Positions 1 through 4,715 of a stretch of 4,715 nucleotides of DNA are shown in pieces. The position numbers and the translations under genes are program-made. Source of the stretch: a virus (Duplodnaviria; Heunggongvirae; Uroviricota; Caudoviricetes); the IMG/VR virus record IMGVR_UViG_2667527792_000004, one strand, 5' to 3'. The notes under the pieces are model-generated. The model was given only the letters and a program-made list of their open reading frames with translations, was not told where the DNA came from and ran no database searches. The first letter of the stretch is position 1, and each line of letters opens with the position of its first letter.

Positions 1-425
1 AATTAGACCAGCAATATCTAAAAGATCTACTTATCGCATTCGAAAAAACTCATGGCCCTGACACGATGCTTAGTGAACTAGAGGATAATGGCTTTAATAG
101 ATATGACCAAAATTTTATTTTCCATATGCGATTATTATGCGACTACGAATTAATAGTCAGGGTTGATGGAAAACCTGGGTTCGGTCATATAATGTCCAAC
201 GAGTTAGGGGAAGGTGTTGGATATAGTTGGATCGAAGTACCACTGAGGTTGACAGCAAGAGGGCATGATTTTATTGCTGACTTGCGTCAAAAGGAGGTCT
301 GGCAAACTATAAAAACAAACTTTAAGGATGAGGGAATTAGTACACTAATAAGTGTTTCAAAATCACTAGCAAAAGGCTTTGCAAGGAAAAAGATAAAAGA
401 TATTACAGGAATAGATATTGAATAA
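1..425 (+). CDS. 5'-partial hypothetical phage accessory protein (ea-region moron; tentatively resembles DUF2513-type small phage proteins)
   Basis: The frame is open from base 3 to TAA 423-425 (141 codons). There is no in-frame start before ATG 66 and no Shine-Dalgarno in front of ATG 66, so the true start is probably just upstream of the window. The segment is visibly AT-rich compared with the rest of the window. It sits where ea8.5 lies in phage lambda. The family assignment is from memory of motif spacing only. Confidence 0.55.
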   Translation, partial: LDQQYLKDLLIAFEKTHGPDTMLSELEDNGFNRYDQNFIFHMRLLCDYELIVRVDGKPGFGHIMSNELGEGVGYSWIEVPLRLTARGHDFIADLRQKEVWQTIKTNFKDEGISTLISVSKSLAKGFARKKIKDITGIDIE

Positions 426-469
426 TTCTTAGCATCAGCAACTACTGCCTTTGGTGGAAATTATATCTG

Positions 470-496
470 AACTCGCTACGGCGAGTTTTGTTTTAT
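470..496 (+). terminator. Putative intrinsic terminator hairpin (AACTCGC-TACG-GCGAGTT) followed by a T-rich tract
   Basis: Perfect 7-bp inverted repeat at 470-476 and 481-487 with a 4-nt loop, then TTGTTTTAT. Lies between the accessory ORF and the 55-aa ORF. Confidence 0.4.
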
Positions 497-507
497 GGAG
501 ATGATAA

Positions 508-675
508 ATGCACTTCCGAGTCACAGGTGAATGGAATGGAGAACCATTCAACAGAGTTATCGAAGCAGAGAACATCAATGACTGCTATGACCACTGGATG
601 ATATGGGCCCAGATAGCACATGCAGACATAACCAATATTCGAATTGAAGAACTGAAAGAACACCAAGCCGCCTGA
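508..675 (+). CDS. Small hypothetical protein, 55 aa, matching the lambda ORF between ea8.5 and xis (orf55 / lambdap35-like)
   Basis: ATG 508 is preceded by GGAG at 497-500 (7-nt spacing). Translation is MHFRVTGEWNGEPFNRVIEAENINDCYDHWMIWAQIAHADITNIRIEELKEHQAA, near-identical to my recollection of the lambda ORF at this position. It is below the 60-aa cutoff of the supplied ORF track. Confidence 0.7.
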   Translation: MHFRVTGEWNGEPFNRVIEAENINDCYDHWMIWAQIAHADITNIRIEELKEHQAA

Positions 676-690
676 TGGCGGTTTTTTCTT
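666..690 (+). terminator. Putative intrinsic terminator (GCCGCC-TGAT-GGCGG stem-loop plus T6 run); the stop codon of the 55-aa ORF lies in the loop
   Basis: Inverted repeat 667-672 / 677-681 followed by TTTTTT at 682-687. Confidence 0.45.
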
Positions 691-702
691 GCGTGTAATT
701 GC
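689..702 (+). promoter_or_regulatory. cII-type activator site TTGC-N6-TTGC of the int promoter pI (-35 region)
   Basis: TTGCGTGTAATTGC has direct TTGC repeats 6 nt apart, the arrangement of cII sites at lambda pRE, pI and paQ. Its position puts the transcription start inside the first codons of xis, as known for pI. Confidence 0.55.
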
Positions 703-714
703 GGAGACTTTGCG

Positions 715-933
715 ATGTACTTGACACTTCAGGAGTGGAACGCTCGCCAGCGACGCCCAAGAAGCCTTGAAACAGTTCGTCGATGGGTGCGCGAATGCAG
801 GATATTCCCTCCTCCGGTTAAGGATGGAAGAGAATATCTGTTCCACGAATCAGCGGTAAAGGTTGACTTAAATCGACCAGTAACAGGTAGCCTTTTGAAG
901 AGGATCAGAAATGGGAAGAAGGCGAAGTCATGA
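715..933 (+). CDS. xis: Excisionase Xis (lambda-type), 72 aa
   Basis: Full-length ORF whose translation (MYLTLQEWNARQRRPRSLETVRRWVRECRIFPPPVKDGREYLFHESAVKVDLNRPVTGSLLKRIRNGKKAKS) matches lambda Xis as I recall it. GGAG lies 8 nt upstream. Its 3' end overlaps int by 23 bp, as in lambda. Confidence 0.95.
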   Translation: MYLTLQEWNARQRRPRSLETVRRWVRECRIFPPPVKDGREYLFHESAVKVDLNRPVTGSLLKRIRNGKKAKS

Positions 934-1981
934 GCGCCGGGATTTACCCCCTAACCTTTATATAAGAAACAATGGATATTACTGCTACAGGGACCCAAGG
1001 ACGGGTAAAGAGTTTGGATTAGGCCGAGACAGGCGAATCGCAATCACTGAAGCTATACAGGCCAACATTGAGTTATTTTCAGGACACAAACACAAGCCTC
1101 TGACAGCGAGAATCAACAGTGATAATTCCGTTACGTTACATTCATGGCTTGATCGCTACGAAAAAATCCTGGCCAGCAGAGGAATCAAGCAGAAGACACT
1201 CATAAATTACATGAGCAAAATTAAAGCAATAAGGAGGGGTCTGCCTGATGCTCCACTTGAAGACATCACCACAAAAGAAATTGCGGCAATGCTCAATGGA
1301 TACATAGACGAGGGAAAGGCGGCATCAGCCAAGTTAATCAGATCAACACTGAGCGATGCATTCCGAGAGGCTATGGCTGAAGGCCATATAACAACAAACC
1401 CGGTCGCAGCCACTCGCGCTGCAAAATCAGAGGTAAGGAGATCAAGACTTACGGCTGACGAATACCTGAAAATTTATCAAGCAGCAGAATCATCACCATG
1501 TTGGCTTAGACTTGCAATGGAACTGGCTGTTGTTACCGGGCAGCGAGTTGGTGATTTATGCGAAATGAAGTGGTCTGATATCGTAGATGGATATCTTTAT
1601 GTCGAGCAAAGCAAAACAGGCGTAAAAATTGCCATCCCAACAACATTGCATGTTGATGCTCTCGGGATATCAATGAAGGAAACACTTGATAAATGCAAAA
1701 AGATTCTTGGCGGAGAAACCATAATTGCATCTACTCGTCGTGAACCGCTTTCATCCGGCACAGTATCAAGGTATTTTATGCGCGCACGAAAAGCATCAGG
1801 TCTCTCCTTCGAAGGGGATCCGCCAACCTTTCACGAGTTGCGCAGTTTGTCTGCAAGACTCTATGAGAAGCAGATAAGCGATAAATTTGCTCAACATCTT
1901 CTCGGGCATAAGTCGGACACCATGGCATCACAGTATCGTGATGACAGAGGCAGGGAGTGGGACAAAATTGAAATCAAATAA
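911..1981 (+). CDS. int: Tyrosine site-specific integrase Int (lambda-type), 356 aa
   Basis: The 356-aa translation begins MGRRRSHERRDLPPNLYIRNNGYYCYRDPRTGKEFGLGRDRRIAITEAIQ and ends HLLGHKSDTMASQYRDDRGREWDKIEIK, matching lambda Int apart from a few substitutions. It contains the BamHI site (GGATCC 1816-1821) characteristic of lambda int. Confidence 0.97.
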   Translation: MGRRRSHERRDLPPNLYIRNNGYYCYRDPRTGKEFGLGRDRRIAITEAIQANIELFSGHKHKPLTARINSDNSVTLHSWLDRYEKILASRGIKQKTLINYMSKIKAIRRGLPDAPLEDITTKEIAAMLNGYIDEGKAASAKLIRSTLSDAFREAMAEGHITTNPVAATRAAKSEVRRSRLTADEYLKIYQAAESSPCWLRLAMELAVVTGQRVGDLCEMKWSDIVDGYLYVEQSKTGVKIAIPTTLHVDALGISMKETLDKCKKILGGETIIASTRREPLSSGTVSRYFMRARKASGLSFEGDPPTFHELRSLSARLYEKQISDKFAQHLLGHKSDTMASQYRDDRGREWDKIEIK

Positions 1982-2009
1982 TGATTTTATTTTGACTGAT
2001 AGTGACCTG
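1978..2009 (+). other. Int arm-type binding sites P'3, P'2, P'1 of the P' arm
   Basis: ATAATGATTTT (1978-1988), ATTTTGACTGA (1989-1999) and ATAGTGACCTG (1999-2009) are reverse complements of the arm-type consensus C/AAGTCACTAT. P'3 overlaps the int stop codon. Confidence 0.7.
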
Positions 2010-2016
2010 TTCGTTG

Positions 2017-2030
2017 CAACAAATTGATAA
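2017..2030 (+). other. IHF binding site H' of attL
   Basis: CAACAAATTGATAA fits the reverse complement of the IHF consensus WATCAANNNNTTR (YAANNNNTTGATW). Confidence 0.55.
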
Positions 2031-2035
2031 GCAAT

Positions 2036-2069
2036 GCTTTTTTATAATGCCAACTTAGTATAAAAAAGC
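2036..2069 (+). repeat. Perfect 11-bp inverted repeat (GCTTTTTTATA ... TATAAAAAAGC) spanning the inner P' arm and the core
   Basis: Seen directly: 2036-2046 and 2059-2069 are reverse complements separated by 12 nt. It is an intrinsic feature of lambda att DNA. Confidence 0.8.
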
Positions 2070-2115
2070 AGGCTTCAACGGATTCATTTTTCTATTTCAT
2101 AGCCCGGAGCAACCT

Positions 2116-2140
2116 GTGAACACATTTTCAGTTTCCCGTC
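2116..2140 (+). pseudogene. ybhC: 5' remnant of ybhC (first ~8 codons with its RBS), the host gene flanking att-lambda on the gal side
   Basis: GGAG at 2106-2109 then GTG 2116. Translation VNTFSVSR matches the N-terminus I recall for YbhC (MNTFSVSRLALALAF...). The frame then diverges and stops at TGA 2161-2163. Confidence 0.4.
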
Positions 2141-2384
2141 AGCAACAGCGGCCCCAGGTCTGAAACCGTCGCCCGTACCGAATGGCCTTTCTCGCCAAAG
2201 ATATCCCACACCACCACCGGATTAGCATGCGGTTGCCAGTCATTTACGCCGATATTTTTAAGCCTTGCGAGCAGTTTTTCCCCCTGGTTAAATACGCCAG
2301 AAGTCTTGCTGATTACGCTCGATGGCAGCGAAGTTCCCGACGTGCTGGCGGATTATTTGCGCCGCTTTCAGCCTGATTGGGTGG

Positions 2385-2522
2385 ATAGCCGAGTTGCAGA
2401 GTATGCAGCGTTCCTTGCAACGCCTTAACGATGCCTGTTGTGGGACCGCCCATAGCAGTGTTTATTGTTCGATTCTTGAAGCTCTTGAACAAGGGGCGAG
2501 TGGCGTTAAGAGTGGCTGTTGA
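2385..2522 (+). pseudogene. zntR: 3' fragment of zntR (MerR-family Zn-responsive regulator), last ~45 codons only
   Basis: Translation IAELQSMQRSLQRLNDACCGTAHSSVYCSILEALEQGASGVKSGC matches ZntR residues ~97-141, including the metal ligands C114, C115, H119 and C124. There is no start and no HTH domain, and the upstream sequence in this frame is unrelated with stops at 2289 and 2310. Confidence 0.7.
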
Positions 2523-2577
2523 TTTTTTGCACTGGCAGGATTACACTCGCGCCGTAAAATAACCAATTGGAGTTTTT

Positions 2578-2796
2578 ATGAGCCGATATCAGCATACTAA
2601 AGGGCAGATAAAGGATAATGCGATAGAAGCATTACTACATGATCCCTTATTCCGACAGCGCGTAGAGAAAAATAAGAAGGGGAAAGGCAGTTACATGCGA
2701 AAAGGAAAACATGGCAATCGGGGGAACTGGGAGGCCAGTGGCAAGAAAGTAAATCACTTTTTTACCACTGGTCTTCTGCTTTCAGGCGCTTGTTAA
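2578..2796 (+). CDS. arfA: Alternative ribosome-rescue factor A (ArfA / YhdL), 72 aa, intact
   Basis: Translation [72 protein letters not shown] matches E. coli ArfA as I recall it. GGAG at 2569-2572 lies 5 nt upstream of the ATG. It is directly downstream of zntR on the same strand, as in K-12. Confidence 0.85.
2733..2773 (+). promoter_or_regulatory. Stem-loop inside the arfA 3' coding region (candidate RNase III processing hairpin)
   Basis: CCAGTGG at 2735-2741 pairs with CCACTGG at 2765-2771, with further imperfect pairing inside. arfA mRNA is known to be cleaved by RNase III in a 3' hairpin to give a non-stop mRNA regulated by tmRNA. Confidence 0.5.
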
Positions 2797-2808
2797 GAGC
2801 GGTTATGC

Positions 2809-3087
2809 ATGATCGGCGACCCGACTGGCGCCCTGACCCGTAACTTCGACAACATGCGTGAAGATGAAGGTCTGGCTGATCGTGCGACCTTCGTTGTTGA
2901 CCCGCAGGGTATCATCCAGGCAATCGAAGTTACCGCTGAAGGCATTGGCCGTGACGCGTCTGACCTGCTGCGTAAAATCAAAGCAGCACAGTACGTAGCT
3001 TCTCACCCAGGTGAAGTTTGCCCGGCTAAATGGAAAGAAGGTGAAGCAACTCTGGCTCCGTCTCTGGACCTGGTTGGTAAAATCTAA
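2809..3087 (+). pseudogene. ahpC: C-terminal half of AhpC (alkyl hydroperoxide reductase, peroxiredoxin subunit), 5'-truncated
   Basis: Translation [92 protein letters not shown] matches AhpC residues ~96-187. The resolving Cys in VCPAKW is present, but the N-terminal peroxidatic Cys region is absent. The M at 2809 is an internal Met of AhpC. Confidence 0.85.
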
Positions 3088-3106
3088 GTTCCGCAATCGC
3101 GTAATT

Positions 3107-3136
3107 AATCGGGTGCTGCGGCACCCGATTTTCTTC
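3107..3136 (+). terminator. Intrinsic terminator/attenuator between ahpC and ahpF
   Basis: 10-bp stem AATCGGGTGC / GCACCCGATT (3107-3116 / 3121-3130) with loop TGCG, followed by a T-rich run. It lies 20 nt after the ahpC stop. Confidence 0.6.
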
Positions 3137-3215
3137 CCCGCACCATGATGCAAGCTGCATCCAGGTAGCCGCAGAGGCCGCTTGCATGATGATGTTTAAA
3201 GCCCAGGAGATAAAC

Positions 3216-4199
3216 ATGCTCGACACAAATATGAAAACTCAACTCAAGGCTTACCTTGAGAAATTGACCAAGCCTGTTGAGTTAATTGCCACGCTGGATG
3301 ACAGCGCTAAATCGGCAGAAATCAAGGAACTGTTGGCTGAAATCGCAGAACTGTCAGACAAAGTCACCTTTAAAGAAGATAACAGCTTGCCGGTGCGTAA
3401 GCCGTCTTTCCTGATCACCAACCCAGGTTCCAACCAGGGGCCACGTTTTGCAGGCTCCCCGCTGGGCCACGAGTTCACCTCGCTGGTACTGGCGTTGCTG
3501 TGGACCGGTGGTCATCCGTCGAAAGAAGCGCAGTCTCTGCTGGAGCAGATTCGCCATATTGACGGTGATTTTGAATTCGAAACCTATTACTCGCTCTCTT
3601 GCCACAACTGCCCGGACGTGGTGCAGGCGCTGAACCTGATGAGCGTACTGAACCCGCGCATCAAGCACACTGCAATTGACGGCGGCACCTTCCAGAACGA
3701 AATCACCGATCGCAACGTGATGGGCGTTCCGGCAGTGTTCGTAAACGGGAAAGAGTTTGGTCAGGGCCGCATGACGTTGACTGAAATCGTTGCCAAAATT
3801 GATACTGGCGCGGAAAAACGTGCGGCAGAAGAGCTGAACAAGCGTGATGCTTATGACGTATTAATCGTCGGTTCCGGCCCGGCGGGTGCAGCGGCAGCAA
3901 TTTACTCCGCACGTAAAGGCATCCGTACCGGTCTGATGGGCGAACGTTTTGGTGGTCAGATCCTCGATACCGTTGATATCGAAAACTACATTTCTGTACC
4001 GAAGACTGAAGGGCAGAAGCTGGCAGGCGCACTGAAAGTTCACGTTGATGAATACGACGTTGATGTGATCGACAGCCAGAGCGCCAGCAAACTGATCCCG
4101 GCAGCGGTTGACCAGCACGTTTTCCGCAGCTGTGGGTCAAAGAGGCATGATGCGACGCTTGTTCCTGCGCTTTGTTCATGCCGGATACGGCTAATGTAG
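3216..4199 (+). pseudogene. ahpF: ahpF (alkyl hydroperoxide reductase subunit F), 3'-truncated: homology covers about the first 298 codons, then unrelated sequence to a stop
   Basis: AGGAGA at 3205-3210 then ATG 3216. Translation [29 protein letters not shown] ... [17 protein letters not shown] ... [12 protein letters not shown] matches the AhpF N-terminal domain and the start of the FAD domain. After ~4110 it reads [29 protein letters not shown]-stop instead of the AhpF sequence EGGLHQIETASG... Confidence 0.85.
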
Positions 4200-4212
4200 A
4201 TCGCTGAACTTG

Positions 4213-4240
4213 TAGGCCTGATAAGCGCAGCGTATCAGGC
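4213..4240 (+). repeat. REP-like palindromic element (GTAGGCCTGATA ... TATCAGGC)
   Basis: GCCTGATA at 4216-4223 and TATCAGGC at 4233-4240 are reverse complements around a 9-nt centre, preceded by GTAG. Another REP-like motif (GATGCGACGCTT) lies about 60 bp upstream. Confidence 0.5.
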
Positions 4241-4271
4241 AATTTTTATAATTTAAACTGACGATTCAACT

Positions 4272-4430
4272 TTATAATCTTTGAAAAATATCGCCAGAGA
4301 CGAACGGGAAACTGATACACAGCAACCCGACGATAAACAACAGCACGGCAATAAACTGGATTGCTCTGCGATGTTTTTTAAGCATCTCCAGATCAAACTT
4401 CAAAATTGTTGCCTTATCTATATATAACAT
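4272..4430 (-). CDS. Hypothetical small hydrophobic protein, 52 aa (single predicted TM helix)
   Basis: Minus-strand ORF giving MLYIDKATILKFDLEMLKKHRRAIQFIAVLLFIVGLLCISFPFVSGDIFQRL. GGTGG lies 4 nt upstream of the ATG. It has a charged N-terminal part followed by a ~22-residue hydrophobic stretch. It is absent from the ORF track because it is under 60 aa, and I do not recognise it. Confidence 0.3.
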   Translation of the reverse strand: MLYIDKATILKFDLEMLKKHRRAIQFIAVLLFIVGLLCISFPFVSGDIFQRL

Positions 4431-4469
4431 AGAACCACCCTATAAAATTAAGAAGAAAATCCCCTGCTA

Positions 4470-4715
4470 TCAATCTATGCCAAAAACGCGTCTAAGAATG
4501 CAGTCGGAGGGCCATTCCGGCAGTACGCTCAGAATATGGCGCAGATACGCTTCCGGATCGATACCGTTCAGACGGCAGGTGCCGATCAGCCCGTACAGCA
4601 GTGCTCCACGCTCGCCGCCGTGATCGCTACCGAAGAACACGTAATTTTTCTTTCCGAGACAGACTGCACGAAGCGCTCTTTCCGCTGTGTTATTGTCCAC
4701 CTCCGCCAGACCGTC
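4470..4715 (-). CDS. IS66-family transposase (TnpC-like), C-terminal 81 codons; the 5' part lies beyond the window end
   Basis: Minus-strand translation ...DGLAEVDNNTAERALRAVCLGKKNYVFFGSDHGGERGALLYGLIGTCRLNGIDPEAYLRHILSVLPEWP... carries the conserved IS66 transposase C-terminal signature (DNN-AER-LR ... GRKN-F-GS ... LNG-DPEAYL). The frame is open to the window edge. The M at 4700 in the ORF track is a GTG within the protein. Confidence 0.7.
   Translation of the reverse strand, partial: DGLAEVDNNTAERALRAVCLGKKNYVFFGSDHGGERGALLYGLIGTCRLNGIDPEAYLRHILSVLPEWPSDCILRRVFGID
4470..4715 (-). mobile_element. 3' portion of an IS66-family insertion sequence; element boundary not identified
   Basis: Transposase fragment as above. 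No GTAAGCG-type terminal inverted repeat is visible between 4200 and 4470. Confidence 0.5.

Follow-up and report, generated by a model that had tools for sequence, protein, structure and literature searches.

The stretch of DNA analysed here (the window, 4715 nt) is identical in extent to an entire GenBank contig, CDRT01000831.1 (range 1–4715), of the draft assembly GCA_001373215.1. Throughout its length it is a patchwork in which unrelated E. coli fragments, at least eight in number and from 0.1 to more than 2.1 kb each, follow one another; one of them is an internal slice of the ahpC-ahpF operon. The fragments, called tiles below, were resolved by sub-window megablast, by use of the annotated regions of matched genomes and by local BLAST. 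They are, from left to right:

1–2140, plus strand: tile A, the right end of a lambdoid prophage with attL, continuing for 25 nt into the start of ybhC (2116–2140); a contiguous match with one mismatch to ATCC 8739 and many other genomes
Genes of tile A, plus strand: a DUF2513 gene (truncated where the contig ends), orf55, xis (715–933) and int (911–1981)
2055–2069, minus strand: the exact 15-bp lambda core of attL, GCTTTTTTATACTAA
2140–2281, minus strand: tile B, an internal 142-nt piece of yjgR, antisense; perfect match
2282–2385, plus strand: tile C, 104 nt from the interior of an accessory slipin-family gene; perfect match
2383–2806, plus strand: tile D, the zntR 3' end, the whole of arfA (2578–2796) and the 3' end of mscL, a convergent gene; identical to strain M8 over 424/424 nt
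2809–4111, plus strand: tile E, ahpC'-ahpF'; 1303/1303 nt identical to M8
4111–4286, plus strand: tile F, the cynX 3' end, a REP-containing spacer and the lacA 3' end; perfect match
4285–4506, minus strand: tile G, the 5' part of hdeD (approximately codons 1–48) and its upstream region; perfect match
4506–4715, minus strand: tile H, an internal piece of tnpC, the transposase gene of an IS66-family (ISEc47-like) element, running off the contig end; perfect match

In tile A, the xis and int genes (the latter encoding a lambda-type protein of 356 aa) are intact in the 715–2069 region, and this prophage end shares about 98% identity with phages of the lambda/434/HK106 type and is nearly identical to the attB prophage of ATCC 8739. 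The only difference in tile A lies at position 609 (C versus G), is synonymous in orf55 and is private when compared with all top-scoring complete genomes. The arrangement is the same as at the left junction of a lambda-type prophage, where attL, int and xis lie at attB by ybhC, and the 15-bp core is exact. Unlike at the native junction, however, the chromosome arm ends here 25 nt into ybhC, and the patchwork follows.

Each of the tiles B–H is a perfect match to some known genome within its true limits; the mismatches seen in the short tiles come from BLAST over-extension across the joins. Tiles D, E, F and G all match strains M8 and GE3 perfectly. For four of the tiles, the source loci in M8 were placed at approximately 0.50, 0.81, 3.88 and 4.08 Mb, with both strands represented. 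Strain WAT matches tiles B and E. The slipin-family gene of tile C, located beside yjbD/rluF, was found in 1631/5426 complete E. coli genomes. Tile H begins within the transposase gene, about 50 nt from its 3' end, and not at an IS terminus. Judging by these sequences, the tiles are wild-type E. coli DNA that is not K-12-like (the slipin gene, IS66 and a short ahpCF spacer allele, described below). Since the slipin gene, IS66, the lambdoid prophage and the short spacer are all markers of wild strains, the patchwork is not stray contamination from a cloning host.

In the patchwork part of the window, arfA (72 codons) is the sole intact gene, and the mscL 3' end overlaps its stop codon. A REP-type palindromic element, GCCTGATAAGCGCAGCGTATCAGGC, occupies 4196–4245 in the cynX-lacA spacer of tile F. 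The repeat scan revealed no meaningful internal repeats in the window, and the Rfam scan gave zero matches.

The ahpC-ahpF slice was examined at the level of single bases. In a megablast search of 5,426 complete E. coli genomes, positions 2804–4111 of the window map to ahpC-ahpF, and perfect-match extension against the ahpCF locus of E. coli M8 places the slice at 2809–4111 (1303 nt, identity 1303/1303 nt, 100%). Its parts are as follows:

2809–3087, plus strand: ahpC fragment, codons 96–187 and the stop codon; Cys166 kept, Cys47 absent
3088–3215, plus strand: ahpC-ahpF intergenic region, short 128-nt allele, with a hairpin (3107–3130) and the U run after it, then another, long hairpin and the ahpF RBS
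3216–4111, plus strand: ahpF fragment, codons 1–298 and 2 nt; double thioredoxin-fold N-terminal domain, Cys129/Cys132 and GSGPAG

Thus, the doubly truncated ahpC-ahpF block that a preliminary description had placed at 2809–4110 is present, with an end one base further on, at 4111. The breakpoints, which it had proposed to define by BLASTN as a check, fall at 2809 and 4111 by perfect-match extension, and each of them abuts an unrelated locus. Its view that the block was cut cleanly from within the operon is supported, the 5' part of ahpC and the 3' part of ahpF being gone. In the E. coli ahpCF operon the neighbours are dsbG and uspG, while the slice is flanked by arfA/mscL and cynX/lacA instead. 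The operon moreover contains ahpC codons 1–95 and all sequence upstream of them, as well as ahpF codons 299–521 with Cys345/Cys348 and the NADH site, and all of these are missing from the slice.

Two reading frames cover the truncated genes. The ORF at 2809–3087 encodes 92 aa, residues 96–187 of the 187 of AhpC. This C-terminal product (MIGDPTG...) is on record, exactly, on 512 contigs, complete genomes among them, so it is not unique to CDRT01000831.1. The ORF at 3216–4199 encodes residues 1–298 of the 521 of AhpF followed by 29 out-of-frame foreign residues; this tail and the stop codon (4197–4199) are supplied by cynX/lacA sequence of tile F.

The spacer between the two genes is 128 nt long (3088–3215). 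Inside it we found a 10-bp GC-rich hairpin at 3107–3130, followed by UUUUCUU, which a simple terminator scan had missed, and an AGGAGA upstream of the ahpF ATG (3216) is retained. The preliminary description had likewise noted an internal ahpC-ahpF terminator and the ahpF RBS as preserved. The same gene order, hairpin and ahpF RBS occur in M8 and GE3, two example strains with the short-spacer ahpCF allele. In ATCC 8739, by contrast, the spacer is long (about 244 nt, with extra sequence directly after ahpC), and six SNPs fall in the slice. The difference between a short spacer of 128 nt and a long one of about 244 nt indicates two structural alleles of the ahpC-ahpF spacer in E. coli. ATCC 8739 thus carries tile A but the other ahpCF allele; the tile A prophage occurs in many backgrounds.

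The Ahp system passes electrons from NADH to FAD, then to Cys345/Cys348 of AhpF, then to Cys129/Cys132 of AhpF, and finally to the Cys166–Cys47 disulfide of AhpC, where Cys47 is the residue that attacks the peroxide. The AhpC fragment begins at residue 96, and the peroxidatic Cys47 (FVCPTE) is absent from it; the resolving Cys166 (EVCPAKW) is retained in the 92-aa ORF. In AhpF, the N-terminal CxxC (Cys129/Cys132, SCHNCP) is retained, with a Thioredoxin_3 domain at residues 126–195 (Pfam), and so is the first FAD motif, GSGPAG, at residue 219. Native AhpF sequence stops at residue 298, and Cys345/Cys348 and the NADH-binding GGGNSG (362) are absent. Both fragments failed the full-length test of their NCBIfam models: AhpC (TIGR03137) reached 156.4 bits where the cut-off is 272, covering profile positions 96–187 of 187, and AhpF (TIGR03140) reached 388.5 bits where it is 502.9, covering positions 1–303 of 515. 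Pfam agrees with NCBIfam in giving partial matches for AhpC' and AhpF' alike. The region upstream of ahpC, next to dsbG, includes an OxyR-regulated promoter. This promoter region is absent as well, as the slice starts within ahpC and the arfA/mscL tile lies upstream.

Since the Ahp relay has lost its first protein disulfide as well as its last catalytic residue, no part of it can turn over. On the sequence evidence, we conclude that the slice cannot give an active Ahp system and is inert. The earlier claims about its coding capacity are supported. The AhpC fragment has lost the region of the peroxidatic cysteine and has the arfA/mscL tile in place of its native upstream region and promoter; AhpF keeps the N-terminal redox domain and the first FAD motif and loses the rest of the FAD/NADH domain and its disulfide after residue 298; and with catalytic residues missing and family-model scores under the cut-offs, no active peroxidase system can be encoded. 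At most, the ahpF RBS could serve for translation of a truncated AhpF (the N-terminal domain, 80 residues of the FAD domain and the 29-aa foreign tail), were the fragment transcribed. Such a transcript might come from the arfA promoter region of tile D, a candidate source, where a promoter-like site at 2532–2560 was recognised by consensus match only.

The joins between tiles were defined by extending both parents to the last perfect base. All seven are sharp, and they lie at the following positions:

2140: join 1, 1-nt overlap
2281/2282: join 2, 0-nt overlap
2383–2385: join 3, 3-nt overlap
2807–2808: join 4, overlap of -2 nt, i.e., a GC filler that fits neither parent in register
4111: join 5, 1-nt overlap
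4285–4286: join 6, 2-nt overlap
4506: join 7, 1-nt overlap

The summed overlap is 8 nt over the 7 joins, versus 4.7 nt expected for random blunt joins (P=0.13). As this sum is not clearly above chance, the joins appear to be homology-independent; overlaps of 0–3 nt are too short for either homologous recombination or a de Bruijn (k-mer) graph error. The GC at 2807–2808 allows three readings: a 2-nt filler, a deletion of 1 nt in codon 95 of ahpC, or a single SNP where mscL ends. It leaves the native Met96 ATG as the start of the called 92-aa ORF, 12 nt past the arfA stop codon. When the sequences at the 14 breakpoints were inspected directly, no common restriction, Tn5, lox/FRT or IS-end motif was seen.

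We also looked for the joins in other records. No place covering at least 80% of any join-spanning query was found in the complete E. coli genomes (0/5,426), where about half of the window is the most that occurs in one place in any genome. Neither the phage search with the whole window nor the plasmid search with 2100–4715 (joins 1–7) gave a place covering at least 80%. The exact 40–43-mer of join 4 is absent from GTDB representative genomes, IMG/VR and JGI metagenomes, that of join 1 from GTDB representative genomes and IMG/VR, and that of join 5 from JGI metagenomes. By exact look-up, the chimeric ORFs (a 52-aa HdeD' fusion and a 337-aa AhpF' fusion from the ATG at 3186) are found on one contig only, CDRT01000831.1. 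The AhpF' ORF from the native ATG gave no record; the gene caller chose the upstream ATG at 3186.

Taken together, these results lead us to favour, as the probable reading, an ahpC'F' slice that is one tile of a chimeric molecule made outside the cell and then assembled faithfully, and hence not real biology. In such a scheme, E. coli DNA would have been broken at random into unrelated wild-type pieces, which would have been joined end to end without homology, by blunt-end ligation or by polymerase template switching/amplification chimerism. We infer that this joining step took place in sample or library preparation; the chimera would then have been faithfully assembled as an orphan 4.7-kb contig numbered 831. 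Since the chain exceeds 2.5 kb and is essentially error-free, a multi-copy physical molecule probably existed before sequencing, and such accuracy is equally compatible with a real molecule that replicates and with an amplified chimera. The preliminary description was incomplete in treating the block as an event at ahpCF itself, as it is one of at least eight tiles and seven other loci are cut alike. Its preference for an extra, ectopic partial copy over the only ahpCF of the strain was reasonable. A true chromosomal ectopic copy is, however, less likely than a chimera, given tiles joined without homology. Most likely, the strain carries a normal ahpCF elsewhere.

The patchwork could instead have formed in the cell, by catastrophic breakage or replication collapse next to the prophage attL, with repair through alternative end-joining (A-EJ) or MMBIR-like serial template switching inserting copies of distant chromosomal segments into ybhC, which would make the slice a true ectopic dead copy. 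Tile A stops 25 nt into ybhC in an otherwise native context, every tile resembles wild E. coli DNA, and the perfect accuracy over all tiles suggests deep coverage. Overlaps of 1–3 nt at five of the seven joins, and a short filler at another, resemble what is reported for A-EJ (bioRxiv 10.1101/605246). Against this, the overlaps show no clear excess over chance (P=0.13), no similar chain exists among 5,426 complete E. coli genomes, and a short-read contig would not be expected to cross two-copy repeats of 1.3 kb and 0.4 kb. E. coli has no Ku/LigD NHEJ, and its A-EJ has a rate of about 1 × 10⁻⁵ (PMC4872102; bioRxiv 10.1101/605246), so a series of seven joins inside the cell would be highly exceptional. 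Moreover, A-EJ, at about 1 × 10⁻⁵ per break, is described as deletion-forming (PMC4872102). We regard this origin as unlikely. Unlikely, too, is its fullest form, a wild isolate with a chromothripsis-like insertion at an attB prophage, in which homology-independent end-joining or serial template switching would have put together copies of seven or more distant segments. If true, it would mean multi-fragment capture or end-joining in a bacterium without NHEJ, which would be of interest for double-strand-break repair.

It is improbable that the chain is real but non-chromosomal, i.e., a concatemer of sheared DNA that sat on a multicopy clone or was in the sequenced sample as carrier or co-ligated DNA. 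Blunt, motif-free joins and tiles of 0.1–2 kb are typical of sheared, ligated DNA, and a high copy number would carry the assembler through tiles that are also present at their native loci; however, the 4715 nt contain no vector, adaptor or linker, all bases but two are explained by E. coli tiles, and the joins are in no plasmid record (search of 2100–4715). A purely computational misassembly, in which the record stems from an error in the graph or in scaffolding, or from contigs that the submitter had concatenated, and no chimeric molecule existed, seems very improbable. The assembly is highly fragmented (contig number at least 831) and three tiles are shorter than 200 nt, but graph errors require shared k-mers while the joins share 0–3 nt, there are zero N spacers, and the 2-nt filler or indel at one join is unlike simple concatenation. 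It is scarcely credible that the slice is the strain's only ahpCF and that the strain truly has no alkyl hydroperoxide reductase: the query holding the slice matched 5,426/5,426 complete genomes, ahpC and ahpF are annotated in 25/25 of the top matches listed, both ends of the slice abut unrelated loci and not dsbG or uspG, and seven further loci are cut in a like manner.

Several other candidates were considered and rejected. An engineered or transducing-phage construct, prompted by lambda int/xis/attL and by lacA-cynX, does not agree with the native chromosomal arm at attL, the intact int, the absence of vector sequence and the wild-strain markers on the tiles. Restriction-based ligation (Sau3AI, Hi-C, Pore-C), Tn5 and recombinase scars were dismissed as the 14 breakpoints have no common motif, and cDNA or retro-insertion as sense and antisense tiles are mixed. 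An IS-mediated join at tile H is contradicted by a breakpoint about 50 nt within the transposase gene and not at an IS end. Finally, the window is no mosaic made in silico, being identical to GenBank contig CDRT01000831.1.

For the chimeric molecule that we favour, the significance is mainly one of data hygiene. Cut or chimeric ORFs of the contig ('ahpC', 'ahpF' with its foreign tail, 'hdeD') are already separate entries in protein collections, and they should not be taken for natural variants or for a loss of Ahp.

Two known processes can be set beside the joins. A-EJ depends on LigA and is known for deletions with 1–9 nt of microhomology (PMC4872102; bioRxiv 10.1101/605246). As summarized in these two sources, the A-EJ of Chayot et al. 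2010 is Ku/LigD-independent and rare, and gives single-break deletions. The window joins are like it in their independence of Ku/LigD and in their microhomology of 1–3 nt, and overlaps of 0–3 nt are within its reported range. However, A-EJ is a matter of single-break deletions, whereas the window has seven serial joins that add distant loci, two of them without microhomology. Chimeras from libraries or whole-genome amplification (WGA) form the second comparison. Seven joins in a 4.7-kb molecule are many when compared with ordinary library chimeras. Nevertheless, library and WGA chimeras share with the window random breakpoints, chance-level microhomology and an occasional filler base, as well as tiles drawn genome-wide from either strand and joins that are unique to one record.
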